64,000 bases of DNA from Clostridia bacterium (GTDB lineage Bacteria; Bacillota; Clostridia; Oscillospirales; CAG-272): contig JAKSPU010000002.1 of assembly GCA_024404505.1 (NCBI GenBank), positions 3,773 to 67,772 on the forward strand, in the 5' to 3' direction. How positions within the stretch are numbered: position 1 is the stretch's first letter; every line of letters begins with the position of its first letter. A program made the translations under genes and the position numbers. Positions 8,038-63,668 of this stretch are shown one piece after another. Under the pieces are notes generated by a model. The model did not search any database, was not told the origin of the DNA, and worked only from the letters and a program-made list of their open reading frames with translations.

Positions 8038-9135
8038 ATGGATAATACAACGTCTGCTCCCAAGGCCACGATCACCAAGGAGACCAAGAATAAGATCGTT
8101 GCGGATTTTGAGCGCACTCCCCTGAAGGAAAGACTCAAGGCCAAGTTCCTGAATCTGTACTTCTTCCAGCAGATCGCATGGTACATCTTCCGTCTGATCC
8201 TGCTGATCGGTATTTCCTACGTCGTCCTGTATCCCTTCTTCACCAAGATCGCCGGTTCCTTCATGTCCCCCGAGGACTTCGTTGACGTCACCGTGCGACT
8301 CATCCCCAAGCACCCGACGCTTGATATTTACAAGGCTGTCCTGACCGAGCTGAAGTACGGTAAGGCGTTCCTGAACACCTTTATCATTTCCTTCTCCTGC
8401 GGCGTCCTGCAGACCTTTGTCTGCTGCCTGATCGGTTACGGTCTTGCCAAGTTCAAGTTCTGGGGCAACAAGCTGGTCATGATGCTGGTCATCCTCACCA
8501 TGATCGTGCCTCACCAGACCCTGCAGCTGTCCATGTTCATGCAATTCCGGTACTTCGATATCTGGGGCATCCTGTCTCTCCTGAGCGGTCACGCCTCCAC
8601 CGGTATCGCGGCTCTGGACGCCGTGCTGGCCAACATCAAGATCCTCCCGATGGAGGATGCGGGCTTCGCCCTGACCAACACCTACGCGCCTCTGCTGATC
8701 CTGTCCGCCACCGGTCTGGCCTTCAAGAACGGTCTGTACATCTTCCTGCTGCGGCAGTTCTTCAACGGCGTCCCGGATGCCCTTGAGGAGTCGGCATACA
8801 TCGATGGCTCCGGTACGTTCTATACGTTCCTCGTCATCATCCTGCCGCTGTCCGTCCCGATGATGGTCACGGTCTTCCTGTTCGCCTTCTGCTGGCAGTG
8901 GACCGACGACTTCTACACCAACCTGTTCTTCACCACGTCCAAGATCGTGCTGATGCCCGACGTCGTCGACATCCCCACGTCCCTGAAGACGGACTACGCC
9001 GGTCAGAATATGTATTACGCCGCTATCAGAAATACCTGTGGCCTGTGCATCATCGCCCCGCTGGTCATCCTCTATATCTTCTGCCAGAACTTCCTGGTTC
9101 AGGGTATCGAGCGTTCCGGCCTGACCGCCGAGTAA
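8038..9135 (+). CDS. Carbohydrate ABC transporter permease (MalG/UgpE-type, extended)
   Basis: EAA-loop (EESAYIDGSGTFYTFLVIILPLSVPMMV) and RBS AAGGAGG. It lies 16 nt after the previous stop. Confidence 0.9.
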   Translation: MDNTTSAPKATITKETKNKIVADFERTPLKERLKAKFLNLYFFQQIAWYIFRLILLIGISYVVLYPFFTKIAGSFMSPEDFVDVTVRLIPKHPTLDIYKAVLTELKYGKAFLNTFIISFSCGVLQTFVCCLIGYGLAKFKFWGNKLVMMLVILTMIVPHQTLQLSMFMQFRYFDIWGILSLLSGHASTGIAALDAVLANIKILPMEDAGFALTNTYAPLLILSATGLAFKNGLYIFLLRQFFNGVPDALEESAYIDGSGTFYTFLVIILPLSVPMMVTVFLFAFCWQWTDDFYTNLFFTTSKIVLMPDVVDIPTSLKTDYAGQNMYYAAIRNTCGLCIIAPLVILYIFCQNFLVQGIERSGLTAE

Positions 9136-9147
9136 GCATTCCTACTG

Positions 9148-9179
9148 CCCGGAGGATCTTCCCGATCCTCCGGGTTTTT
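9148..9179 (+). terminator. Intrinsic terminator of the Yip1/DUF5696/permease operon
   Basis: CCCGGAGGATC-TTCCC-GATCCTCCGGG followed by TTTTT, 13 nt after the stop. Confidence 0.85.
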
Positions 9180-9190
9180 CTTACGAAGGA

Positions 9191-9394
9191 CGCGCCGGGG
9201 CTCTGCCCCGGACCCCGCAAGCCCTTCTTGAAAGAAGGGCTTGCGCCTAAGAACTTTCATATAATGTATCAGAAATGAGTGTTTTGAGGAAAGTTCTTGA
9301 AATGAGAGAGGGGCCCCACCCGCCGAAAGGCGGGCGGGGAGGGAGAAGAACTTCTTTCAAGAAGTTCTTCTCCCTCCCCGTTTCCCCCCCGCAC
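9191..9394. repeat. Composite intergenic repeat, copy 1 (forward unit plus inverted unit)
   Basis: Forward unit: GGGGCTCTGCCCC 9197-9209, hairpin AAGCCCTTCTTGAAAGAAGGGCTT 9219-9242, AAGAACTTT 9249-9257. Inverted unit: AAAGTTCTT 9290-9298 and a 19-bp-stem hairpin at 9336-9379 with apex CTTCTTTCAAGAAG. It is flanked by TTCTTACGAAGGA (9178-9190) and TTCTTACGAAAGGA (9395-9408). Confidence 0.8.
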
Positions 9395-9414
9395 TTCTTA
9401 CGAAAGGAGCAATT

Positions 9415-10878
9415 ATGCTTGATTTTGAACCAAAGAACGTATTCCGGTATTTTGAAGAGATCTGTGCGATCCCGCATCCGTCCGGACATGAGGAAAAGAT
9501 CGCGGACTATGTGGAGCGGTTTGCCAAGGAGCGCGGACTGAGCTGTTACCGCGACGAGGTGAACAACGTGTTCGTGAAGAAGGCGGCCACGCCGGGGCAT
9601 GAATCGGCGGGTGCCGTCATGCTGCAGGGACACATGGATATGGTACCCGAAAAGGACTCCGGAAGCAGCCATGATTTCCTGCGGGACGGCCTGAAGCTGT
9701 CCGTCAAGGACGGGTGGATCAGCGCCGACCACACGACGCTGGGCGGCGACGACGGCGCAGCCATTGCCATCATGCTGGCGCTGCTGGACAGCGCTCCTGA
9801 TCCGCATCCGGCGTTGGAATGTCTGTTCACGGTGTCCGAGGAAACGGGCCTGACCGGTGCGTGGGCCTTTGATCCTGATGCGGTCGGTATGACGGCGGGG
9901 ACGATGATCAACCTCGACAGTGAGGAGGAAAGCATCGTCACCGCCGGATGCGCCGGCGGCGTGCGGACGGATATCCGGGTCCCGGTGACCACGGCGCCGT
10001 TTGCGGGCACAGCGCTCCGCGTCGCGCTGGGCGGCTTCACGGGTGGTCATTCCGGCATTGAGATCAATGAGGGACACGCCAACGCGATCAAGATGCTGGC
10101 GCGTCTGCTGGCTGCCCTGCGGGAACGGTTTGACTTTTCGCTGATCGCGGTCAGCGGCGGCGGCAAGGACAATGCGATCCCGCGCGCCTCGGAGGCGATC
10201 GTGTCGCTGCACGGAGCGGACGCGGAAGCGTTTGCGGCAGCTGCTGCGGCAGAGGCTGACGAACTGCGTCACGAGCCGTCGACCATCGAGGCTGACCGTG
10301 CGTTCATCTGCACGGTCGGGCCGGCAGCCGCGCCCTGCGCCGAAATGGACAAGGAATCCACAGGTCGTGTGTTGAGCATCCTGAATCTTGTCCGCAGCGG
10401 TGTGATCGAAATGAGCGCGTTCGTACCGGAGCTGGTCGCGTTCTCGCGCAACCTCGGCATCCTGTCGACGGAAATCGGCGCGGACGGCACGAGCGTGGTG
10501 CTGTCGTTCTCGTCGCGGTCGGCGTCCGAGCATCAGCTTGACGCGACTCAGCGCGAGCTGGAGATGCTGGCAGCCGCCCACGGGGCGGAGGCGTCGCATC
10601 ATGCCCGTTATCCCGGCTGGGACTACGCGCCCGTGTCGCCGCTGCGTGAGATCTGGGCGAAGGAAAGCGAGCGCCTGTTCGGCGTGACGCCGGAGGTGGT
10701 GGTCATCCATGCGGGGCTTGAGTGTGGCATCCTGTGCCACAAGCGGCCCGGACTTGACATCATCTCGGTCGGTCCCGACATGAAGGATATCCACACGCCC
10801 CGCGAACGGCTGAACGTCGACTCCACCCGCCGGACCTACGAGTTGGTCTGCGCCGTGCTGGCAAAATTGGCGCTGTAA
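9415..10878 (+). CDS. pepD: Aminoacyl-histidine (Xaa-His) dipeptidase, M20 family
   Basis: N-terminus FRYFEEICAIPHPSGHEEKIADYV and metal motif LQGHMDMV. Length of 487 aa is typical of PepD. RBS is AAAGGAG. Confidence 0.9.
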   Translation: MLDFEPKNVFRYFEEICAIPHPSGHEEKIADYVERFAKERGLSCYRDEVNNVFVKKAATPGHESAGAVMLQGHMDMVPEKDSGSSHDFLRDGLKLSVKDGWISADHTTLGGDDGAAIAIMLALLDSAPDPHPALECLFTVSEETGLTGAWAFDPDAVGMTAGTMINLDSEEESIVTAGCAGGVRTDIRVPVTTAPFAGTALRVALGGFTGGHSGIEINEGHANAIKMLARLLAALRERFDFSLIAVSGGGKDNAIPRASEAIVSLHGADAEAFAAAAAAEADELRHEPSTIEADRAFICTVGPAAAPCAEMDKESTGRVLSILNLVRSGVIEMSAFVPELVAFSRNLGILSTEIGADGTSVVLSFSSRSASEHQLDATQRELEMLAAAHGAEASHHARYPGWDYAPVSPLREIWAKESERLFGVTPEVVVIHAGLECGILCHKRPGLDIISVGPDMKDIHTPRERLNVDSTRRTYELVCAVLAKLAL

Positions 10879-10895
10879 GGAGCGTAAGAGCGTGT

Positions 10896-11104
10896 GGAGC
10901 TCTGCCCCACGCCCCAAGGATGCGCTTTTGGGGCTCTGCCCCACGCCCCAAGGATGCGCTTGTGGGGCTCTGCCCCACCCCCCGCTTAAACCCTTCTTGA
11001 AAGAAGGGTTTAAGGATCCCAAGAACTTTTTGACATTGTATAAAAAGAGATTTGGATTGCGCCGGACAGAAAAGGTGGGCGCCCGCGAGGGCACCCACCT
11101 TTTT
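10896..11104 (+). repeat. Composite intergenic repeat, copy 2 (single forward unit)
   Basis: G(G/A)GCTCTGCCCC occurs at 10896, 10930 and 10964 (34-bp period). Hairpin TTAAACCCTTCTTGAAAGAAGGGTTTAA is at 10986-11013 and AAGAACTTTT at 11021-11030. A terminator module closes the unit at 11073-11104. Confidence 0.85.
11073..11104 (+). terminator. Intrinsic terminator (shared repeat module) after pepD
   Basis: AGGTGGGCGCCC-GCGA-GGGCACCCACCT followed by TTTT. Confidence 0.8.
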
Positions 11105-11449
11105 CATTTGTTTTAGGAGCGGTGTATATGGAGCTCAACGTATTGAACTTTCGGCGCGATCAGTTTAACAATCCTCTATCGAGAGCGTTCAGGAAGCCCG
11201 TTGCGGTATCAGGAACATAAACACGGTATGAAAGGCGCTGACAGCTCGCTCGGACAGCATTTCTTTGTCAAACAGAATTGACTATATAAAACGGTCGTAT
11301 AATTGTCAACATATTTACGGAGAACTTACAAACTGTTCACAATTTTGCGAGGGATGCAAGGAATCTGCATAAAGAAAAATTCCTGCGGGAAAAAATGCGG
11401 ACTATACGGCTTGTTTTGCCCGAAAACTGCACGAAACAGGCAAAATCAC

Positions 11450-11478
11450 TTGACAAACCGGCATATTAAGTGTATAAT
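11450..11478 (+). promoter_or_regulatory. Sigma-A-type promoter of rny
   Basis: TTGACA (11450-11455), 17-nt spacer, TATAAT (11473-11478), ~75 nt upstream of the rny ATG. Confidence 0.7.
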
Positions 11479-11553
11479 ATATGATAGCCGTCTGTTTGCC
11501 GGACATTCCGGAAAACGGAAAGGCATACTGCATTTTAAAAAGGAGGTGTATAT

Positions 11554-13107
11554 ATGAGTCCTGTATTAGCAACGATCCTGATCGTGGTTGCTCTGATCCT
11601 CGGCGGCGTGATCGGCGCGCTGATCGGCATGGCCATGCGCAAGAAGTTTGCCGAAGCCGAGATCGGCTCCGCGGAGGAAGAATCCAAGCGGCTGGTCGAT
11701 GAAGGTAAAAAGCAGGCCGAGACCCTGAAAAAGGAAGCCCGGCTCTCCGCTCAGGAAGAGATCATGAAGCTCAAGAGCGATATGGAGCAGGAGATCAAGG
11801 ATCGACGCGCAGAGGTATCCCGCACGGAATCCCGGTTGACCAAAAAGGAAGAAAACCTGGATAAGAAGAGCGAGGCACTCGACAAAAAGGGTGAGCTGCT
11901 CGACAAGAAGATCAAGGATGCCGACGTCGTGAAGGAGCAGGCGGAGGAGGTGCTGGCCAAGCACACCGCCAAGCTGGAGGAGATCTCCGGCTATACCTGC
12001 GAGCAGGCAAAGGCTGAGCTGGTAGCCAATCTTGAGACGGAAGTCCGTCATGAGATGGCACAGCGGCTGGCCGAGCTTGAGGCTGAGTACAAGGAAGCGG
12101 CAGACGAAAAGGCCTGCCACATCATGGCGCTGGCCATTCAGCGCTGTGCCGGTGACTTTGTCGCCGAATCCACCATTTCCTCCGTGGCACTGCCCAGCGA
12201 GGAGATGAAGGGCCGCATCATCGGTCGTGAGGGACGCAATATCCAGAAGCTGGAGACGCTGACCGGCGTGGAACTGATCATTGACGATACGCCCGAGGTC
12301 ATCACCATTTCCGGATTCGATCCCATCCGCCGCGAGGTCGCGAGACTTGCGCTGGAAAAGCTCATTGCCGACGGTCGTATCCATCCCACCCGCATCGAGG
12401 AGATGGTCGAGAAGGCCAAGAAGGACGTGGACGCCGCCATCAAGCAGGCCGGCGAGCGCGCTACCTTCGAGGTCAACATCCACGGCATCAACCCCGATCT
12501 CGTCCGTCTGCTGGGTCGTCTTCGCTACCGCACCAGTTACGGACAGAACGTCCTGCAGCACTCTGTGGAGGTCGCCATTCTGGCCGGCATCATGGCAGAG
12601 GAGCTGGGCGTGGATCCTGTGCTGGCCCGCCGTGCCGGTCTTCTGCATGATATCGGCAAGGCATTCCCCTATGACGTGGAGGGCTCCCACGTACAGATCG
12701 GCGTCAATGCCGCCAAGAAGTACAAGGAGAGCAAGGACGTCATTCATGCCATCGAGGCACACCACGGAGACGTGGAGCCCCAGACCGTCATCGCCGTGCT
12801 GGTCCAGGCCGCCGATGCCATCTCGGCCGCGAGACCCGGCGCCCGCCGCGAGGACATGGAGAACTACATCAAGCGTCTTGAGAAGCTCGAGGAGATCGCC
12901 GAAAGCTATCAGGGCATCGAGAAAGCATTCGCCATTCAGGCCGGCCGTGAGCTGCGCGTGATGGTCAAGCCCGAAGCCGTCAGCGACGAGGACATGGCGC
13001 TCATCGCCCGCGAGATGGCCGAAAAGATCCAGGCAGAGGTCAAGTACCCCGGCCAGATCAAGATCAACCTCATCCGGGAAAGCCGCGCAGTCAGTTACGC
13101 CAAGTAA
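11554..13107 (+). CDS. rny: Ribonuclease Y
   Basis: N-terminal TM helix, long coiled-coil, KH domain ([15 protein letters not shown]) and HD domain (LLHDIGKA...HHGD). RBS is AAGGAGG. Confidence 0.95.
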
Positions 13108-13451: not shown

Positions 13452-14018
13452 GTGACCGAACGTATGACCGATGAAGAGATCATCACGCTGTACGAGCGCC
13501 GGGACGAGGCGTCCATAGCGGAAACCGAGCGGCAGTATGGCCGCTATTGCCGGTATATCGCCGGAGAGATCCTGCAGAACGAGCAGGACGCCGAGGAGAT
13601 CGTCAACGATACTTACCTGAAAACGTGGAACAGCATCCCGCCGGAGAAGCCGGACTCGCTCAAGGCGTTCCTCGGATGCATCACGCGGAGACTGTCCATC
13701 AACAGGCTGGAGAAACGAAACGCGCAAAAACGAGGCGGCGAGTATATGGCGGCGCTGGACGAGCTGGCCGAGTGTCTGCCGGACGGTGAGTGTGCGTCGA
13801 TCCCCGACGAGACCGCGCTCTCGGACTGCCTCGACAGGTTCATCCGTACGCTCGACCGGGAGGACAGATTCCTGTTCGTCCGGCGGTATTGGTTCATGAC
13901 TCCCGTCTCTGCGCTCGCGCGGGAAGCGTCGCTGACCGAAAGCTGCGTCAAGTCCAGACTGATGCGCTTGCGAGAACGCCTCCGCGCACACCTGACAAAG
14001 GAGGGTTATACCGTATGA
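13452..14018 (+). CDS. ECF-type sigma-70 family RNA polymerase sigma factor (copy 1)
   Basis: Region 2 (DAEEIVNDTYLKTWNSIPP) and region 4 HTH (ALAREASLTESCVKSRLMRLRERL). Listed start is GTG 13452, with an alternative ATG at 13464. Stop overlaps the next start (GTATGA). Confidence 0.85.
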   Translation: MTERMTDEEIITLYERRDEASIAETERQYGRYCRYIAGEILQNEQDAEEIVNDTYLKTWNSIPPEKPDSLKAFLGCITRRLSINRLEKRNAQKRGGEYMAALDELAECLPDGECASIPDETALSDCLDRFIRTLDREDRFLFVRRYWFMTPVSALAREASLTESCVKSRLMRLRERLRAHLTKEGYTV

Positions 14019-20616: not shown

Positions 20617-21966
20617 TTACAGCCCCATCGCCTCGCGCAGCTCGCTGTACATATACAGCGACCCGAGGCAGAGAAGGGGGATTCCCTGCGCCCGGCACAG
20701 GGTGACGGCTGCCGTCAGGGCCTCCGCGACCGTCGGATAGTCCGACGCCGTGACGCCGAGCGACGCGTACAGCTCCGCCAGCTCGCGCCCGGACAGAGCC
20801 CGGCTGTTGTGCGGCGTGACCGTGAACACCCGGCACGCGACCGACGCGATCCGCGCCGCCATGTGCGCGTAGTCCTTATCGGCCATGACGCCGGTCAGCA
20901 CGGCGATCTTTTGACCGCCGAAGCAGGCAGCCGCAGTTGCCGCGGCCGCGTCGATGCCCTCCGGGTTATGTCCGCCGTCCGAGACGATCACGGGATCGCG
21001 GGACAGCACCTCGAAGCGCCCCGGCCAATACACGGAGGCAAGGCCCGTGCGGACCGCCTTGGCCGGTATGCGCATCCCCTGCTTCCGCAGCAGCTTCACG
21101 ACGGTCAGCGCCGTCGCCGCGTTGCACGGCTGGTACAGGCCCGGCAGCGGGATGTGCAGACCCTTCAGATTGCCCCAATCGAAATCCGAGCCGGACAGAT
21201 CGGAGCGGATGTTTTTCAGAACGGACGGCCCGACGGGGATATAGGGCGCGCCCAGCTCGTCCGCGCGGGCCTTGATCACCCGTCCGCAGGATACGGGATC
21301 GACGATGGTTGATCCTCCGACCGCTCCGACGGGCGGATGAGCGCCGCCGAACACGACCGGCACGCCCGGCTTGATGATTCCGGCTTTCTCGGCGGCGATC
21401 TTTTCCGGCGTGTCGCCGAGGAACGCGGTGTGGTCCATGGCGATGCCCGTGATGACGGACACGGCGACTTCTCCGGCCTCCAGCACGTTGGTGGAGTCCA
21501 TGCGCCCGCCCATACCGACCTCGAACACGACGACGTCGCAGGCGTGCCGCGCAAAGTAGACCAGCCCGATGGCGGTGATCAGCTCGAACTCGGTCGGCAC
21601 GTCCTCCATGCCGTCCGCGAACGGGCGCACGTAGGACGTGATCCCGGCAAGCTCCGCGTCGGGGATCTGCTCGCCGTCGATCTGCATCCTCTCGTTGAAG
21701 CGGATCATGTACGGCGACGTGAACAGCCCCACCCGGTACCCGGCCGCGCGGAGGATCGAGGCCGTCATGGCGCAGGTCGAGCCCTTGCCGTTGGTCCCGG
21801 CGACGTGGACAAAGCGCAGCGACTTCTGCGGGTCGCCGAGCAGCGAGCAGAGCGTGCGGATACGGTCAAGACCCGGCGCGTGCCGGGTCCAGACGTTGGA
21901 ATGGATGTATGCGACGGCTTCCTCCGCCGTCGTGATCGGGGGGAGTGCGGTTTCGGATATGGTCAT
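20617..21966 (-). CDS. folC: Bifunctional folylpolyglutamate synthase / dihydrofolate synthase
   Basis: P-loop HVAGTNGKGST and a Mur-ligase-like layout. Start lies 3 nt after the folT stop. Confidence 0.92.
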   Translation of the reverse strand: MTISETALPPITTAEEAVAYIHSNVWTRHAPGLDRIRTLCSLLGDPQKSLRFVHVAGTNGKGSTCAMTASILRAAGYRVGLFTSPYMIRFNERMQIDGEQIPDAELAGITSYVRPFADGMEDVPTEFELITAIGLVYFARHACDVVVFEVGMGGRMDSTNVLEAGEVAVSVITGIAMDHTAFLGDTPEKIAAEKAGIIKPGVPVVFGGAHPPVGAVGGSTIVDPVSCGRVIKARADELGAPYIPVGPSVLKNIRSDLSGSDFDWGNLKGLHIPLPGLYQPCNAATALTVVKLLRKQGMRIPAKAVRTGLASVYWPGRFEVLSRDPVIVSDGGHNPEGIDAAAATAAACFGGQKIAVLTGVMADKDYAHMAARIASVACRVFTVTPHNSRALSGRELAELYASLGVTASDYPTVAEALTAAVTLCRAQGIPLLCLGSLYMYSELREAMGL

Positions 21967-21969
21967 GGA

Positions 21970-22578
21970 TCAAACGTCGTCCTTCTTTTTGGATTTGCGG
22001 CTCGCGGTGATCTGCCCGTTTTTGTCGGCAAGGCTCTTGATCGGCTCAAGCAGGAATGCCGTCAGCGGCACCGTGACGACCATACGCAGACCGGCGGCCA
22101 GCAGACGGCCGGGCAGAAGCAGGTGCAGCGCCTTGACCTCGTACTGCCAGATCATGCCGTCGATGTAAAACACGGCGGTATTGGCGGCGGTGAACAACAG
22201 CTCGGCGATCACGGTGATCGTGATGACCTGCCACGACTTGGGCTCATACCGGCACAACCATGCGCAGAAGCTGACGAACAGGCCGAGCAGCACGACGGGG
22301 GCCATCCAGATCGGGGTGGTCACCATCAGACCGTATTGACTGAGCATCTGCTCAAGGAACGAGCCGAGCAGGGAGACGGCCAGCGTGTCGACGGGGCCGA
22401 ACAGAAATCCGCACAGGATGATCGGCAGGGACGAGATCGAAAACTGCACGAGCGGCAGGTCGATGGACATGAAGCGGGCCAGCACGAAGTACATGGCCGC
22501 CAATATGGCGTCCATGATCATCCGCTGGATCATGCGGCGCTTCTTGCTTCTCGGGGTCTCGGTTTTGCGTTCAGACAT
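21970..22578 (-). CDS. folT: Folate-family ECF transporter S component
   Basis: About 200-aa, 6-TM protein directly upstream of folC. Start MSERK sits 8 nt after GGAGG. The listed longer ORF runs into the leader RNA. Confidence 0.8.
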   Translation of the reverse strand: MSERKTETPRSKKRRMIQRMIMDAILAAMYFVLARFMSIDLPLVQFSISSLPIILCGFLFGPVDTLAVSLLGSFLEQMLSQYGLMVTTPIWMAPVVLLGLFVSFCAWLCRYEPKSWQVITITVIAELLFTAANTAVFYIDGMIWQYEVKALHLLLPGRLLAAGLRMVVTVPLTAFLLEPIKSLADKNGQITASRKSKKKDDV

Positions 22579-22586
22579 AAAAATAC

Positions 22587-22622
22587 CCTCCTTCCCCACA
22601 GCCATTTGGCAGGGGAAGGAGG
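22587..22622 (-). promoter_or_regulatory. SD-sequestering hairpin (riboswitch expression platform)
   Basis: On the minus strand, CCUCCUUCCCC (22622-22612) pairs perfectly over 11 bp with GGGGAAGGAGG (22597-22587). The latter contains the folT Shine-Dalgarno sequence. Confidence 0.65.
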
Positions 22623-22688
22623 AATCGAACCCGCCGCACGCACAATATACGCGTTCAGCGGGAGGGTTCTCCCAAGCCTCGACCAGAT

Positions 22689-22811
22689 GAAGCGGGATGC
22701 AGACCCCGGACCGCAACGACCCGATGAGAGCGCGTGTTTCGTCCGGCAGACAACTCCCCGTCCTGCCGGCACTCAGGCAGGATGCCTGATACGCCCGGAG
22801 CCTTACTCTTC
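22689..22811 (-). promoter_or_regulatory. Candidate THF-I (tetrahydrofolate) riboswitch aptamer
   Basis: The minus-strand RNA reads GAAGAGUAAGGCUCCGGGCGUAUCAGG ... ACGAA ... GCGGUCCGGGGUCUGCAUCCCGCUUC. This parallels the E. siraeum THF aptamer as I recall it (GGAGAGUAG-P2-GCGUUAAGUG ... ACGAA ... GCGGU-P2'-UGCAUCCGCUCC). P1 GAAGAG/CGCUUC and P2 GGCUCCGG/CCGGGGUC pair. The interior is longer than in the reference. Confidence 0.6.
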
Positions 22812-22827
22812 AAATTTTTGTACTATC

Positions 22828-25948: not shown

Positions 25949-25959
25949 TGAGGAACACC

Positions 25960-26240
25960 GGGGCGCTGCCCCGGACCCCGGGATGCTCCCGGGGCTCTGC
26001 CCCGGACCCCGCTTAAACCTTTCTTGAAAGAAGGGTTTAAGGATCCCAAGAACTTTAATAGAAAAGAATGACCAAGGTTTGGTTTTACGCTCAACCTTGG
26101 TCATTCTTTATTCTTCTGTATAAAAGTTCTTGAGATTCTCAAGGACTTCTTTCAAGAAGTCCTTGAGCGTCTGAAGGGCTTGCCCTTCAGAATGTGCTGG
26201 GCAGAGCCCTGCTCGCGTCTCCGGATGCAGGGCAGAGCCC
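25960..26240. repeat. Composite intergenic repeat, copy 3 (head-to-head units between convergent genes)
   Basis: Forward unit: GGGGCGCTGCCCC 25960, GGGGCTCTGCCCC 25991, hairpin 26013-26040, AAGAACTTT 26048-26056. Inverted unit: AAAGTTCTT 26123-26131, hairpin CTCAAGGACTTCTTTCAAGAAGTCCTTGAG 26138-26167, GGGCAGAGCCC at 26199 and 26230. Confidence 0.85.
26063..26109. terminator. Bidirectional 17-bp hairpin at the centre of repeat copy 3
   Basis: AAAGAATGACCAAGGTT-(13 nt containing TTTTACGC)-AACCTTGGTCATTCTTT. Confidence 0.7.
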
Positions 26241-26259
26241 TGCTCGTACTATATACCTG

Positions 26260-32318: not shown

Positions 32319-33344
32319 TCAGAAGAGTCTGCCGAGCAGGCGGCCGGACAGATTCAACTCTCCGCCCCAGAGAGAGGGCGTGCGGATGATGCGGTTGAGG
32401 CCGTTGATCACGCAGTCCAGCGGGTCCTTCGCCACGGTGACGCGCAGACCCGTGCAGCGGCTGATGGCAGCCGCCATGCCGGGGATCACGGCGCACCCGC
32501 CGGTGAGCATGAGGCCGTAGTTATGGATGTCGGCGGAGATCTCAGGCTGGACGCCCTCCAGCGTGAGCAGCGCGATGCGGGCTATGTTTTCGATGGACGG
32601 TGTGATCGCCTCACAGATCTCCCGCGAGCTGACGTTGAGCGCCGCGGCCAGTCCCTCGTCGGATTTCAAGCCGCAGACGGTCATGCTGCCGCGGTCGAGG
32701 CGGGGATCGGCGGAGCCGATCTTCACTTTGAGTGCCTCCCCCGCGGAGTCTGAAATGCGGAGGTGGCGGCGGTTGAGCATATAACTGACGATGGCGACGT
32801 CCAGCCGTTCGCCTGCCATGCGGGCGCTGAGTGCGTTGACGATGCCGCAGGAGCTGATGACGGCTGCCTCGGTGATGCCGCCGCCGATGTTGAGGACCAT
32901 GCAGCCCTGCGGCGACGTGACCCGCAGCCCGGCCCCGACCGCGGCGGCAAAGATCGCGGGGACCTGCGGCACGTCGCGGGCGCCGGCCTCCAGCACGGCG
33001 TTTTCCGCGGCCAGCTTCTCGACCTCGGTGATGCGGTACGGAGTGGCAAGCAGCACGACGGGCTTGTAGAAGGTGGAGCGCAGCTTCTTCTGCGTGAAGT
33101 ACGAATCCAGCATGAGCGCCGTGACCTCAAAGTCGGAGACGACGCCGTCCTTGATCGGCCGGTAAGCCAGAATGCCCTCGGACGTTTTGCCTATCATCCG
33201 GCGGGCCTCGGCGCCCACGGCGATCACCTCGTGGGTCTGGCTGTCAATGGCAGCCGCCGACGGACGGCGCAGGATCACGCCCTCCTCGGGCGTACAGATC
33301 CGGGTATACGCGGTCCCCAGATCAAGACCGATACAACGAGCCAC
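32319..33344 (-). CDS. mreB: Rod shape-determining protein MreB
   Basis: Actin-fold start IGLDLGTAYTRI. GTG 33344 chosen (6 nt after GGAGG) because the listed TTG 33350 abuts the RBS. Confidence 0.9.
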   Translation of the reverse strand: MARCIGLDLGTAYTRICTPEEGVILRRPSAAAIDSQTHEVIAVGAEARRMIGKTSEGILAYRPIKDGVVSDFEVTALMLDSYFTQKKLRSTFYKPVVLLATPYRITEVEKLAAENAVLEAGARDVPQVPAIFAAAVGAGLRVTSPQGCMVLNIGGGITEAAVISSCGIVNALSARMAGERLDVAIVSYMLNRRHLRISDSAGEALKVKIGSADPRLDRGSMTVCGLKSDEGLAAALNVSSREICEAITPSIENIARIALLTLEGVQPEISADIHNYGLMLTGGCAVIPGMAAAISRCTGLRVTVAKDPLDCVINGLNRIIRTPSLWGGELNLSGRLLGRLF

Positions 33345-33389
33345 GGGCAACCTCCTTTCCCGGCTGTGGGCCGGAATGTCGATGCGGAT

Positions 33390-35680: not shown

Positions 35681-35945
35681 AGGTACCATCGCGCAACGCG
35701 CGGTGGTACCTTAACGCCCACGCGGGCCCCGCTCGTGATCGGGCAGATGGCATCTGCCCGATCCGTGCAAACCCGAGGGAACGCCTCGCGCGTTCCGCGA
35801 TTGGGGACCCACCCCCCGGCCCCCTCCCGTGCGCGGGAGGGGATAGGGGAGGTAGGTCCCCGAGCGCCGGAGGCACGAGGACTCTTGCCCGCAGGCGCTC
35901 GGTCCCCTCTTCCGAGCGAGGATAGGGCCCCCGCGATTGCGTTTC

Positions 35946-35978
35946 AAAAAAGGTGGGCGCCCATGACGGCACCCACCT
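35946..35978 (-). terminator. Intrinsic terminator (shared repeat module) after lysC
   Basis: Minus strand reads AGGTGGGTGCC-GTCAT-GGGCGCCCACCT followed by TTTTTT. Confidence 0.8.
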
Positions 35979-44349: not shown

Positions 44350-44898
44350 ATGGCCGATATCCTGCAGGACCGGGAGATCATCTGTCTTCTGGAAGCACGT
44401 GACGAGACCGCGGTCAGGGAACTGCAGCGCAAGTACGAGCGATATTGCCTGACGGTGGCGATGAATATCCTGCACAACGCGGCTGACGCGGAGGAATGCG
44501 TCAACGACGTTTATCTCAAGACGTGGAACAGCATCCCGCCCGCCCACCCGACCTCGCTTCGCCTGTTTCTCGCCAAGCTGACCCGCAACACGGCACTTGA
44601 CCGCTATCGGGTGCGCAGACGGCGCGGGTCGGACTTTGAGGTCGCGCTGGAGGAGCTGGAAAGCGTTCTCGCGGTACCTGAGGAGGACGCGGACGAGCTT
44701 CCGGACCTTGTCAACGAGTTTCTGGACGGACTTCCGTCGACGGAACGCACGACCTTCCTGCTTCGCTACTGGCACGCGATGCCGGTCGCGGACATCGCCC
44801 GCCGGGGCGGGTGGACGATCAATGCCGTATCCGTGCGATTGTATAAGACCCGCGAAAAGCTGCGGGCGTTTCTTGCCGAGAGGGGGTATCATGTATGA
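44350..44898 (+). CDS. ECF-type sigma-70 family sigma factor (copy 2, paralog of 13452-14018)
   Basis: DAEECVNDVYLKTWNSIPP, versus NDTYLKTWNSIPP in copy 1. Region 4 is VADIARRGGWTINAVSVRLYKTREKL. It has the same ...GY.V-stop / ATG overlap. Confidence 0.85.
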   Translation: MADILQDREIICLLEARDETAVRELQRKYERYCLTVAMNILHNAADAEECVNDVYLKTWNSIPPAHPTSLRLFLAKLTRNTALDRYRVRRRRGSDFEVALEELESVLAVPEEDADELPDLVNEFLDGLPSTERTTFLLRYWHAMPVADIARRGGWTINAVSVRLYKTREKLRAFLAERGYHV

Positions 44899-54093: not shown

Positions 54094-57000
54094 ATGAACA
54101 AAATGAAAGGATTGTTCGGACTGCTGCTTCTCCTTGCGGTCATACTCCTGACCCTGACCGCCTGCCACATCGAGAAGCGTCCGACCGTGATCACCGACCC
54201 GCCCGCCGACACCGCGCCGGAGCCGACTGATACCGAGCCTGCCACCGGGGCAGAGCCGGAACCGGACACAAAGCACGTTCACGTATACGGCGCATGGACG
54301 GAGCAGGTGGCGCCCACCTGCACGCAGCACGGCACCGAGATCCGCGTCTGTGCCTGCGGAGAAACCGAGACCCGCCCCGTGGACCCGAAGGGACACATCG
54401 AAGTCATCATGGAGGCGGTTGCCCCCACCTGCTCGTCTGTCGGTCTGACGGAGGGCAGACATTGCTCCGAGTGCGGCGAGGTTTTCTCGGAGCAGGAGGA
54501 GATCCCCATGCTGCCGCATACTGAGGTCACCGACTCCGCCGCCGCGCCGACCTGCACCGAGACCGGTCTGACCGAGGGCAGCCACTGTTCCGTCTGCAGC
54601 GCCGTGATCGTGCCACAGGAGACCGTTGCCGCGCTCGGGCATACTGAGGAAACGGACCTTGCCGTCGCGCCGACCTGTACTGAGACCGGTCTGACCGAGG
54701 GACGCCATTGCACAGTCTGCGGATCCGTGACCGTTCCGCAGGAGACCGTGGAGGCGCTCGGACACCAAGAGGTCGAGGACGCGGCGATCGCGCCTACCTG
54801 CACAGAGGTCGGCTGGACCGCGGGCAGCCACTGCGCCGTCTGCAACGCCGTATTCATCGTGCCGTCTGAGATCCCCGCTATGGGCCACACGCCCGTGACG
54901 GATCCCGCCGTTACGCCTACCTGCACCCGGAACGGCAAGACCAAGGGCAGCCACTGCGCTGTCTGCCGTGAAGTCCTCAAGGCGCAGGAGCCCATTTACG
55001 CCAAGGGACATCAGCCTGTGACCGATCCCGCCGTCGAGCCTACCTGCACCGAGTCCGGCTGGACCATGGGCACTCACTGCTCCGTCTGTCAGGCTGTCCT
55101 CGACGCTCCGACAGAGATCGCTCCGCTCGGCCATAAGCCCGTGACCGATCCGGCCGTTCGGCCTACCTGCACCGACACCGGTCTGACGGAGGGCAGCCAC
55201 TGCTCCGTGTGCCATGCCGTGGTCGTGAAGCAGCAGGTCATCGCTCCGCTCGGACACACTCTCGTCGTCGATCCCCGCGTCGAGCCGGGCTGCGTGGAGC
55301 CCGGTCTGACCGAAGGACAGCATTGTATCCTCTGCGGCGCCGTCGTGACGCCTCAGGAGGTGATCGAGCCGCTGGACCACCACATCGTCATCGATCCCGC
55401 CGTCGAGCCGACCTGCACGGAGCCCGGCTACACCGAAGGCACACACTGCGAACGATGTGATATCATCTTCATTCTGCAAAAAGAGATCCCCGCACTCGGC
55501 CACGTCGTGATCACGCAGCCCGCTGTTGAGGTCACCTGTACCACGGACGGCATCACCGAGGGCAGATACTGCCGCCGGTGTGGATTCGTGCTGGCCGAAC
55601 AGGTCGTTCTCCCGGCTCCGGGACACGATATCGTGAACGAGCCGGCTGTCGAGCCGACCTGCGTCACGGACGGTAAGACCAAAGGCTCGTACTGCTCCGT
55701 CTGCAACGAGCGTTTCCTTGAGCAGAAAACGATCAAGGCGCTCGGACATGACTTCGATTGGTATGTCTGCAGCCGCTGCGGTCTGGATCGGACGTCTCAG
55801 GGGCTGATATTCACCTCGAACGGTGACGGCACCTGCTCCGTCAGCGGCTGCGGCTCCTGCACCGATCAGACCGTAATCATCCCGGCCAAGTCTCCCGCGG
55901 GAGACAAGGTGACGGGCATCGCGGCCGGTGCCTTCAACTATAAGGATACCTCCCTCAGCCCGCGCTCCCTGCTGATCCCGCCCACCGTGACGTCCATCGG
56001 CAGCGACGCCTTCAAGGGCTGCCCGCTCCTGACCTCCGTGTCCATTCCGGACAGCGTGAAGTACGTCGGAGAGGACGCGTTCACGGGCTGCACGGCACTC
56101 AAGCTGACCACCTACGATAACGCCTGCTACATCGGCAACGAGGAGAACCCGTACCGCGTGCTGCTCTCCTGCACAAACAAGAACGCAGCCTCCAGCATCA
56201 TCCATCCCGAGACCGAGATCATCGCAAGCGGTGCGTACGACAAGTGCGTCAATCTGTTCACCATCACGATCCCTGCGCGCGTGTCCTGCATCAACGAGTT
56301 TGCCTTCAAGGATTGCACCGGTCTGGTCGGGATCTCCGTCAGCACCGGCAACCCCACGTACTACAGCCGGAACAACTGCGTGATCCGCTACGACGACGGT
56401 ACGCTCGTGCTGGGCTGCAGCCGCTCCGTCATCCCCAACGACCGCAGCGTCACCGCCATCGGTCCCGGCGCGTTCTATGGCTGCACGGGATTGACGAGCA
56501 TCGTTATCCCGGAGGTCGTCAAGCGCATCGATCACGATGCGTTCTACGGCTGCAAGTGGTTGAAGAGCATCACGCTGCCTGAAAGCCTGATTGAAATTGG
56601 AGAAAACGCCTTCTACGGCTGCGGAGAACTGAGAAAGCTCCTGATCCCGGATAACGTGACCAAGATCGGTCCGTATGCGTTCGCTTTCTGCTCCATCATG
56701 CTTGAGGTCAAGCTGCCCGAAAGCCTGACGACGATCCCGGAGTACCTGTTCTACAGCTGCTACAAGCTGCCTTCCGTCACGGTCCCGTCCCGCGTGACCG
56801 AGATCGGCGAGTATGCCTTCTTCTCATGCCGCGGTCTTGAAACAGTCAATCTCCCCGAGAGCCTGAAGACGATCGGCGAGTCTGCGTTCGGCTACTGCTC
56901 CGCGCTCAAGTCGATCACGGTGCCTGCCGGCGTGACGCGGTATGAAAACTATCTCTTCCGCGGTTGTGCCGTGCTGACCGATATCACCCTCGCCGATACC

Positions 57001-57276
57001 GTGACGTCCATCGGTAATTACACCTTCTCCGGGTGCAACAAGCTGAAGACGATCACCCTGTCCGAAAACCTGACGTCCATCGGCAACAACGCCTTTGCCG
57101 GCTGTTACGATCTGAATAAGATCGTCATTCCTGCCGGCGTGACCAAGATCGGCGCGTCTGCCTTCTCCGGCTGCGGCAAGCTGACCATCAATTGCCGCGT
57201 TTCCTCCAAGCCCGCCGCATGGGATACCAAATGGAACGTGTCCCTCTGCCCGGTGATTTGGAACTATGCGGGATGA
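54094..57276 (+). CDS. Large surface lipoprotein: Cys/His repeat array plus BspA-type LRR domain
   Basis: Lipobox LTLTAC and a Pro/Thr/Glu linker. A 41-aa repeat array covers aa 100-550, followed by ~480 aa of LRR units (IP..V..IG..AF..C..L). Confidence 0.85.
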   Translation: MNKMKGLFGLLLLLAVILLTLTACHIEKRPTVITDPPADTAPEPTDTEPATGAEPEPDTKHVHVYGAWTEQVAPTCTQHGTEIRVCACGETETRPVDPKGHIEVIMEAVAPTCSSVGLTEGRHCSECGEVFSEQEEIPMLPHTEVTDSAAAPTCTETGLTEGSHCSVCSAVIVPQETVAALGHTEETDLAVAPTCTETGLTEGRHCTVCGSVTVPQETVEALGHQEVEDAAIAPTCTEVGWTAGSHCAVCNAVFIVPSEIPAMGHTPVTDPAVTPTCTRNGKTKGSHCAVCREVLKAQEPIYAKGHQPVTDPAVEPTCTESGWTMGTHCSVCQAVLDAPTEIAPLGHKPVTDPAVRPTCTDTGLTEGSHCSVCHAVVVKQQVIAPLGHTLVVDPRVEPGCVEPGLTEGQHCILCGAVVTPQEVIEPLDHHIVIDPAVEPTCTEPGYTEGTHCERCDIIFILQKEIPALGHVVITQPAVEVTCTTDGITEGRYCRRCGFVLAEQVVLPAPGHDIVNEPAVEPTCVTDGKTKGSYCSVCNERFLEQKTIKALGHDFDWYVCSRCGLDRTSQGLIFTSNGDGTCSVSGCGSCTDQTVIIPAKSPAGDKVTGIAAGAFNYKDTSLSPRSLLIPPTVTSIGSDAFKGCPLLTSVSIPDSVKYVGEDAFTGCTALKLTTYDNACYIGNEENPYRVLLSCTNKNAASSIIHPETEIIASGAYDKCVNLFTITIPARVSCINEFAFKDCTGLVGISVSTGNPTYYSRNNCVIRYDDGTLVLGCSRSVIPNDRSVTAIGPGAFYGCTGLTSIVIPEVVKRIDHDAFYGCKWLKSITLPESLIEIGENAFYGCGELRKLLIPDNVTKIGPYAFAFCSIMLEVKLPESLTTIPEYLFYSCYKLPSVTVPSRVTEIGEYAFFSCRGLETVNLPESLKTIGESAFGYCSALKSITVPAGVTRYENYLFRGCAVLTDITLADTVTSIGNYTFSGCNKLKTITLSENLTSIGNNAFAGCYDLNKIVIPAGVTKIGASAFSGCGKLTINCRVSSKPAAWDTKWNVSLCPVIWNYAG
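54391..55743 (+). repeat. 11 tandem in-frame 123-bp (41-aa) repeats
   Basis: Each unit reads GH.(P)V.D.AV.PTCTE.G.TEG.HC.VC..V....E.I..L. Degenerate half-units flank the array (aa 61-99 and 551-575). Confidence 0.9.
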
Positions 57277-57490: not shown

Positions 57491-57562
57491 AGGTACCATC
57501 GCGCATCGCGCGGTGGTACCATAACGCCCACGTGAGGGCCCCTGTCCCCACGACTGCGTCTC

Positions 57563-57594: not shown

Positions 57595-57721
57595 AATCCC
57601 ATTCAGCGTAAACTTAACCTTGGTCAATATACTTTTTGAAAGTCCTTGAGCGGGGTATGGGGCAGAGCCCCATGCGTTCTCCACGTGTGGGGCAGAGCCC
57701 CATGCGTCCCCCTATCCTTCG

Positions 57722-59154: not shown

Positions 59155-59190
59155 CTGGGAGGAAACTTCCTTCAGGAAGTTTCCTCCCAG
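59155..59190 (-). other. 16-bp hairpin between argG and argH
   Basis: CTGGGAGGAAACTTCC-TGAA-GGAAGTTTCCTCCCAG on the minus strand with no T-run. It is followed by CTTTCAAGGACTTT, a fragment of the repeat-family hairpin. Confidence 0.6.
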
Positions 59191-63291: not shown

Positions 63292-63668
63292 GGGGCTCTG
63301 CCCCACGTCCGGGGGACGCTTACGGGGCTCTGCCCCGGACCCCGCTCAAGGACTTCTTGAAAGAAGTCCTTGAGAATCTCAAGAACTTTTATACAAGGAT
63401 AAGAATTGATCGGGGTTTGGTTTACGCCAAACGAGATAGGTGGGGGCCGTCATGGGCGCCCACCTTTTTGCTTACGCTTCAAACATTTCCGCATCTGGCA
63501 GGATAAGGGTGCAGGGAGAAGGGAGCGGCATTGCCGCTCCCTTCTCCCTGCGTATAAAGATCTATTGCTCCCCCTCCCGCGCACGGGAGGGGGTAGGGGG
63601 GTAGGTCCCCGAGCGCGGAGCGCGAGGCGCTGCCCCCCCGCCGGCGGGGGTCAAGGGGCCGCAGCCCC
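63292..63668. repeat. Composite intergenic repeat, copy 7
   Basis: The forward unit has GGGGCTCTGCCCC at 63292 and 63324, a hairpin at 63345-63374, AAGAACTTT at 63381-63389 and a terminator at 63438-63469. Extra hairpins follow at 63512-63550 and 63570-63593, and GGGGC-CGCA-GCCCC at 63655-63668 abuts the fumC stop. Confidence 0.8.
63438..63469 (+). terminator. Intrinsic terminator (shared repeat module) after the discoidin gene
   Basis: AGGTGGGGGCC-GTCAT-GGGCGCCCACCT followed by TTTT. Confidence 0.8.

Follow-up and report, generated by a model that had tools for sequence, protein, structure and literature searches.

A direct repeat marks the edges of an intergenic hairpin block that is present or absent upstream of pepD in a Clostridia bacterium

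The DNA analyzed here, referred to as the window, is a stretch of 64 kb from a Clostridia genome. In it, a hairpin-rich block of ~216 bases separates the terminator of an ABC-transporter operon from the ribosome-binding site (RBS) of pepD, an M20 dipeptidase gene (Table 1). The terminator is the sole terminator-like site in positions 9000–9500. It lies 3′ of the last gene of a DUF5696/two-permease ABC operon and is conserved in the relatives L083, L093, L094, and L097. This terminator and the RBS and start codon of pepD, as named in a first-pass annotation, were borne out, as were the positions it gave for a 13/14-nt direct repeat flanking the block. That annotation had described the block as a 204-bp element made of one repeat copy. 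It proved instead to be a tail-to-tail doublet, in which a complete forward unit is followed by a reversed partial unit. In the predicted fold the two opposed tails pair in a central stem, the 30-nt spacer of which is AT-rich and carries a TATAAT at 9260–9265; this sequence notwithstanding, no sigma-70 promoter feeding pepD was called inside the block. The region as a whole, hereafter copy 1, has a fold energy of −150 kcal/mol (z = −9.65), and no credible ORF was found in the 204–216 bp of the block. The exact doublet has no second copy within the 64-kb window, where another inverted doublet is found at 25953–26245. With the block in place, the pepD leader gains ~216 nt of strong hairpins between terminator and RBS, which could alter pepD expression.

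Table 1. Features of the permease–pepD intergenic region (window coordinates).
Feature	Position	Strand	Details
Intrinsic terminator of the DUF5696/ABC-permease operon	9147–9175, T run to 9179	+	12-bp stem
Left direct-repeat copy, TTCTTACGAAGGA	9178–9190	+	3′ part ACGAAGGA is also the forward-unit leader
Canonical forward unit	9183–9262	+	Covariance model R1, full length, 66.1 bits, E 2.5e-19; fold; alignment A2
Parts of the forward unit	A hairpin 9195–9211; B hairpin 9217–9244; tail 9249–9257		Leader; A hairpin CCGGGGCTCTGCCCCGG; B hairpin; tail AAGAACTTT
Central stem of two opposed tails, AAGAACTTTC ... GAAAGTTCTT	9248–9298		Predicted fold
Reversed partial unit (right half)	9291–9394	−	R1 matches model positions 35–67 only (9342–9374); fold
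Parts of the reversed unit	6-bp hairpin 9319–9334; extended B hairpin 9335–9380		Tail; 6-bp hairpin; 21-bp extended B hairpin; C run; GCAC
Right direct-repeat copy, TTCTTACGAAAGGA	9395–9408	+	5′ part is the reverse complement of leader CGTAAGAA; 3′ part is the pepD RBS
pepD RBS, GAAAGGAG	9402–9409	+	ATG start at 9415

The units of the doublet belong to a repeat family with the canonical order purine-rich leader, A hairpin plus CCCC, B hairpin, tail, and often a terminator hairpin. The leader takes the form (C)GTAAGA.. or.AAGGAYGCGC, and the A hairpin GGGGCNNNGCCCC with its CCCC occurs one to three times in tandem with a period of ~34 nt. An example of the B hairpin is AAGGACTTCTT-GA-AAGAAGTCCTT, and the unit tail reads CAAGAACTTT. 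The reversed partial unit of copy 1 lacks the A hairpin. When 16 units from the window and four other genomes were aligned (alignment A2), the A hairpin was found to be invariant and to be preceded by a (C)GTAAGA or GAAGGA leader. RNAalifold returned both hairpins from this alignment, with 10 of the 19 pairs still pairing through changes on both sides and with broken pairs in 2 of 112 cells for the outer B stem. A covariance model built from family units (R1) identified 10 full units in the window. Nine of them start no more than ~20 nt from a stop codon and share the orientation of the gene concerned; the exception is copy 1, the forward unit of which starts after a terminator and not after a stop codon. 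Every family copy is extragenic, and ORFs called across the repeats were rejected as spurious read-throughs of repeat sequence. The strict orientation relative to stop codons and the covarying stems point to selection on single-strand structure, either RNA or DNA.

Of 98 loci searched with R1 (0.95 Mb), only 6 gave matches, which are dense where present. Five units lie in 13 kb of L015 (Eubacterium sp. CAG:180), three in 8 kb of L014, and one or two each in L001, L002, and L003. The other 70-odd Clostridia loci gave no R1 unit, and no full unit was found in ~37 kb from clade B, the sister clade and nearest relative of the window described below (L082, L083, L091–L094, L096, and L097). A scan of viral contigs for the A unit turned up four identical contigs with a family unit among 91 stretches; the viral loci with multiple matches were inspected and set aside as unrelated high-GC repeats. 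Units from a single genome resemble one another closely: three of the B hairpins in the window are identical, and the two B stems of L001 are nearly so. This distribution fits an expanding or homogenised repeat population and not a universal regulatory RNA. No Rfam 15 family matched the repeats at gathering score or at E-value thresholds, with only weak generic long-hairpin (miRNA-model) matches, far below threshold, in 9100–11200. A literature search with the core strings and the topic did not find the family, and it seems to be an intergenic repeat of the REP/BOX/MITE kind that has not been described. R1 can be used to annotate it.

Several other arrangements of family and non-family modules were observed. 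The A-unit array 3′ of pepD (10896–10997) has three units in the window and two in L081 (1500–1560; 96% identical), so array length varies between strains. At 59157–59190 (− strand), in the co-directional junction between the argininosuccinate synthase and lyase genes, a unit has leader, B hairpin, and tail without the A hairpin. Three intergenic regions (35681–35946, 57491–57560, and 63470–63660) have non-A/B modules in common, for example a GGTACCATCGCGC...GCGGTGGTACC hairpin and a CCCCTCCCGCGCACGGGAGGGG hairpin. The short-read contigs L081, L082, L093, L095, L096, and L097 all end inside repeats, mostly in the long hairpin. The family thus fragments MAG assemblies, as well as yielding spurious small ORFs.

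The two copies of the direct repeat match at 13 of 14 positions: TTCTTACGAA (10 exact bases), a one-base indel, and then GGA. They are in register in that the seven bases TTCTTAC stand identically before GAAGGA, the leader core, on the left and before GAAAGGA, the RBS, on the right. To judge this match, 5000 intergenic regions matched in length and dinucleotide composition were simulated with a Markov model, each copy being allowed anywhere in a 50–70-nt end zone. An exact bracketing repeat of at least 10 bases arose in 0.3% of them, and the gapped 13/14 alignment had p ~0.005 against shuffles. A chance origin of the repeat is therefore unlikely (p ~0.003–0.005). An 8-mer bracketing repeat appeared in ~5% of simulated regions when the search windows were generous. 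The 14-mer of the right copy has no further match with up to two mismatches in the 64-kb window.

Both halves of the repeat are also sequences of the element type. The covariance-model match of the forward unit starts at 9183 and hence overlaps the last 5–8 bases of the left copy (ACGAAGGA), while the first 8 bases of the right copy, TTCTTACG, are the reverse complement of the leader CGTAAGAA. The latter leader is also present in L003, in copy 2, and in L001, where it lies 17 nt beyond the true stop, and the forward leader ACGAAGGA(C)GC recurs in L002 and on the window minus strand near 57715. The direct repeat corresponds to a junction of reverse leader and forward leader, and is a 14-nt near-palindrome with five of seven positions symmetric. 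Just inside the repeats are imperfect short inverted ends: the left one is CGCGCCGGGG, and the right one reads GTGCGGGGGG when reverse-complemented (~7/9 match, one gap). In relatives with 96% identity, the right copy reads CTCTTACGAAAGGA. An A before the G is absent from both window copies and present in every clade-B sequence at this position (L094, L083, L093, and L097), which suggests that the duplication arose after the two clades had separated.

Close relatives in which the junction could be compared were metagenome contigs found via protein clusters. The GTDB representative genomes are too distant (nearest pepD 67% identical), and could not serve for an empty-site test, since the permease is not upstream of pepD in L001–L005, L020, or the first 25 loci listed. 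Clade W consists of the window, L081, and L095, the pepD genes of which are 96–99% identical at the DNA level. Clade B has a pepD ~80% identical and a permease 92–94% identical to those of the window, and is divided into subgroups B1 (L082, L096, L083, and L093) and B2 (L091, L092, L094, and L097). An empty site with a single repeat copy had been predicted in the first-pass annotation, and for the window's clade the junction expected on this basis is GGGTTTTTCTTACGAAAGGAGCAATTATG. Such a site exists in L094, where the permease (96% identical in amino acids) is followed by the terminator, a single repeat copy TTCATTACAGAAAGGA, the RBS, and pepD. The 64-nt L094 junction reads ...CCTCCGGGTTTTTCATTACAGAAAGGAGTCACTATG-pepD, or in its longer form ...CCCGGAGGATCATCCCGATCCTCCGGGTTTTTCATTACAGAAAGGAGTCACTATG and then pepD. 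In alignment A1, two one-base indels and the clade-B spacer are all that set it apart from the predicted sequence. The intervening block is thus genuinely polymorphic for presence or absence, with its edges at the repeats, and that it was gained or lost as a unit is well supported. Within clade W, L081 and L095 have the filled right junction CCCCCCGCAC/CTCTTACGAAAGGAG, at which both contigs break. The filled and empty sites are concrete evidence for block-wise gain and loss, ongoing or recent, of a structured intergenic repeat family in uncultured gut Clostridia. Such elements are known almost wholly from Proteobacteria, Neisseria, and streptococci.

Other features of the relatives complicate this picture. 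L094 is nested among filled relatives in the pepD tree, so that its empty state might reflect secondary loss or an older allele brought in by recombination. In the permease tree, an empty-type flank ATTACAGAAAGGA (L094 and L083) and a filled-type flank CTTGCAG/GGGGG (L093 and L097) each occur in both B1 and B2, despite permease 3′ ends that are 99.6% identical within each sub-clade. The two allele types are thus old and are reassorted by recombination breaking at the terminator. In L083, unrelated AT-rich DNA begins directly after ATTACAGAAAGGA, downstream of the conserved permease terminator, and other modules begin after CTTGCAG in L093 and L097. The permease–pepD spot is a hot spot that has been hit repeatedly. 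The L083 insert (1860–1970) is very AT-rich, contains a small hydrophobic ORF, and represents a different insertion at the same boundary. A separate observation concerns mreB, which is directly upstream of pepD-rny in relatives with 60–64% identity (L002, L003, and L005) and which in the window (32319–33350, − strand) is 23 kb from pepD on the other strand. The region upstream of pepD is accordingly a synteny breakpoint.

The right half of the doublet has homologues upstream of pepD in clade B (L091, L082, L096, and L093). It is 78% identical (gaps counted) to the L091 module, the first 23 bases being identical, whereas it is just 41–44% identical to the other units of the window. Homology with L091 starts exactly at the tail motif at 9291, and the two differences between the window and clade B fall at both ends of the conserved right half, which are the positions of the two repeat copies. 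Compensatory pair differences were found in the hairpins (GGGAGGGAGAAGAAC/GTTCTTCTCCCTCCC in the window and GGGAGAGAGAAGGAC/GTCCTTCTCTCTCCC in clade B). Upstream of pepD in clade B, the reversed module adjoins different left parts. In L093, which overlaps L096 from the same sample, the order is permease, terminator, CTTGCAG/GGGGGGCATCCGTCGC, TTTTATCAACAC..., reversed module, CCCCGTTCTTCGTTCCCCC/GAAAGGAG, and pepD, and in L091 a HAD hydrolase gene and other modules precede the reversed module. No convincing flanking duplication was detected at the filled sites upstream of pepD in clade B. A module like the right half is also present at an unrelated ThrRS/ankyrin junction in L098, and is thus not specific to pepD; when metagenomes were scanned for the right half's extended hairpin, this was the only match, too few for a tabulation of flanks. 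Another repeat module, GGTTCTTCATAATTTCTGG...GGAGGAGGGGCGGGGAAAA...TTTTTCCCCGCCCTCCCC, was noticed after the HAD hydrolase gene of L091 (5440–5530) and after the permease terminator of L097 (2240–2340), two contigs from the same sample.

Taken at a probability of roughly one half, our main reading is that the doublet was gained at a site that was duplicated or shared in the process, so that the repeat marks the edges of a ~216-bp block gained or precisely lost. The doublet would most likely have entered the short near-palindromic site TTCTTAC/GAAAGGA with the help of a trans-acting enzyme. A copy of the site would have remained on each side, either as the target duplication of a staggered cut or as the shared core of a site-specific crossover, and the left part may later have been rearranged, differently from lineage to lineage, by recombination at the conserved motifs of the family. 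This reading does not separate a transposase-type target duplication from an att-like core or from microhomology. Counted in its favour are the non-random, in-register repeat, the empty site of L094, the A missing from both window copies, the position of the window–clade B differences, the short inverted ends, the repeated hits at this spot, the expanding behaviour of the family, and the right-half-like module at an unrelated locus in L098. Since no outgroup has the permease–pepD junction, we infer the direction of the change (insertion and not deletion), as we do the enzyme and any choice between target duplication and att-like core. The suggestion in the first-pass annotation of a MITE-like mobile element inserted with target duplication or through microhomology thus holds for the gain or loss of the block, and transposition with target duplication is only one of several mechanisms that fit, since an att-like shared core or recombination among the repeat motifs explains the repeat equally well. 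That annotation had also counted relatives carrying the element without the flanking duplication as evidence against an insertion; the clade-B inserts are in part of this kind, and the empty site of L094 matches its prediction.

Flanking repeats, which it had proposed to tabulate for all copies, are not significant at any repeat-bearing window junction other than that of copy 1, nor at L003 or L098. The flanks of copy 2 (TAAGGAGCG/TTAGGAGCG and TGGAGCTC) and those of the L003 unit (TAAGAACGA/TAAAACGA) are suggestive by eye and were discarded as not significant (p ~0.06–0.08 and p 0.6, respectively). An orthologous empty site for the L003 unit was sought in L004 and L020, where synteny is lacking. 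Target duplication is therefore not a trait of the family. Among the 45 proteins scanned in the 64-kb window there is no transposase, recombinase, cognate IS, or RAYT, and its gene content is one of ordinary chromosomal genes. The absence of duplications elsewhere, clade-B filled sites included, the nesting of L094 among filled relatives, the lack of a transposase or recombinase gene in the window, and the resemblance of both repeat halves to the family's leader count against a gain of the doublet. So does the right half: its 78% identity to the clade-B module, alongside a pepD that is only 80% identical, resembles vertical descent, and the doublet would then not be one recent insert.

A somewhat unlikely alternative holds that the region is an old mosaic and never was a single insertion. 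The reversed module would be ancestral and vertically inherited upstream of pepD, and the forward unit would have joined it in the window lineage when recombination or gene conversion took place at conserved family motifs, namely the leader and the AAGTTCTT tail. The repeat would then reflect a chance resemblance of the native terminator flank and forward leader on the left to the reverse-unit leader and native RBS on the right, and L094 would be a secondary deletion or a recombinant allele. This agrees with the start of the window–clade B homology exactly at the tail motif, with a right half nearer to the clade-B module than to any window unit, and with leader motifs (CGAAGGAC and CGTAAGAA) that are intrinsic to units elsewhere. 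It is also in line with the presence of both allele types in B1 and in B2, which implies recombination with its breakpoint at the terminator, and with the other copies having no flanking repeats. However, two unrelated local changes would be needed to make a 13/14 repeat in register, a large coincidence (~1e-4 or less for the 7–8 non-motif bases), and in L094 the entire element would need to have been lost, precisely, through a random deletion that spared one intact repeat-equivalent copy.

An improbable further alternative is site-specific integration of the Campbell type instead of transposition. Here the joined ends of the doublet (...TTCTTACG plus AAGGA...) would form an att-like near-palindromic core shared with the chromosomal TTCTTACGAAAGGA, and the circular junction would read ...TTCTTACG-AAGGACGCG... 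before a single crossover by a tyrosine or serine recombinase encoded elsewhere, after which the core would stand on both sides. The exact correspondence of the repeat to a near-palindromic junction of the two leaders, both of its halves being element-type sequence, is what such a core would look like, and the precise presence/absence in L094 and the joining of unrelated AT-rich DNA at the same boundary in L083 are consistent with it. On the other hand, the window encodes no recombinase, other units are not flanked by such cores, and the clade-B inserts at this site share no core. Finally, the idea that a purine-rich, Shine-Dalgarno-like leader and a real RBS, each after T-rich sequence, are alike simply by chance is already disfavoured by the simulations and highly improbable: AAGGA-type motifs are indeed common in unit leaders and RBSs and 8-mer repeats are not rare, but a match of this length is, and it coincides exactly with the edges of a real indel in L094.

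The family was compared with known classes of intergenic repeats. Like the MITEs Correia/CREE of Neisseria and RUP of Streptococcus pneumoniae, it is small, non-coding, intergenic, multi-copy, and strongly folded. Copy 1 adds to this likeness a flanking direct repeat that is single in the empty site, short imperfect inverted ends, and a location between terminator and RBS from which it could alter expression. In known MITEs, however, the terminal inverted repeats are well defined and match a cognate IS, and the duplication is short and fixed (TA for Correia and RUP), whereas the duplication here would be 13–14 nt and at one copy only, the ends are weak, and the units are oriented to the upstream gene. 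We know of no cognate IS for the family, and it cannot be filed as a MITE because its copies do not have a consistent target duplication.

A second likeness is to REP sequences, which have a GTAG motif 5′ of the stem. As in REP/BIME and REPIN-RAYT systems, the family has GC-rich hairpins with a conserved motif (GTAAGA) 5′ of the stem, is extragenic and usually just 3′ of genes, and forms mosaic clusters and inverted doublets that fold into long hairpins. Target duplications are not known from REPIN movement by RAYT-type enzymes. Most family copies have no flanking repeats; since copy 1 has a 13/14-nt one and the RAYT search covers the 64-kb window only, the element cannot be filed as a REPIN. 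The REP systems are described from E. coli and Pseudomonas (Bertels and Rainey 2011, PMC3116915; Nunvar 2010, PMC2817692), and for REPINs the first of these reports proposes the doublet as the mobile form and includes observed excision. The units described here are longer (~85 nt), with two different hairpins, a tail, and often their own terminator, and their host is a Clostridia MAG and not a proteobacterium.

BOX elements of Streptococcus pneumoniae are likewise modular, intergenic, and strongly folded, with a tandem middle module of variable number. They differ in module order and content, share no sequence similarity with the family, and lack its one-way link to stop codons. Copy 1 also recalls small integrative elements whose att or dif-like core is shared with the chromosome: its near-palindromic core occurs singly in the empty site and flanks the insert on either side, and in L083 unrelated DNA is joined at the same boundary. 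Unlike in those elements, a motif resembling the core is present at many family copies where no such repeats occur.

A rather speculative and unlikely extension of these comparisons is that the units could be mobile "gene-end cassettes", an undescribed class in Oscillospirales-type gut Clostridia. Such cassettes would be oriented, structured, and often equipped with their own terminator, would integrate at stop-codon and Shine-Dalgarno junctions through the near-palindromic leader core with a chromosomal recombinase or HUH-type enzyme, and would transpose in the form of inverted doublets. If true, they would represent a REPIN-RAYT type of symbiosis in Firmicutes, though one with a 13–14-nt core left behind or shared.

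Several features elsewhere in the window were recorded along the way. The sole gathering-score Rfam match is a THF riboswitch (22688–22812, − strand; 62.8 bits), located upstream of the gene for an ECF-transporter S component (21970–22716) and of a Mur-ligase-type gene (20617–21966) that probably encodes folylpolyglutamate synthase. About ten tandem 123-nt coding repeats (41 aa) at 54507–55721 lie inside a 1060-aa BspA-type leucine-rich-repeat protein (54094–57276), and two ECF-type sigma-factor paralogues (13452–14018 and 44350–44898) have in common a 92-nt stretch with 76% identity. The region 3′ of the repeat downstream of pepD (11114–11560) contains AGGAGCGGTGTATATG and a 31-codon ORF with an RBS and start like those of rny (AGGAGGTGTATATATG at 11541), and a consensus TTGACA-17-TATAAT promoter is found at ~11451–11479.
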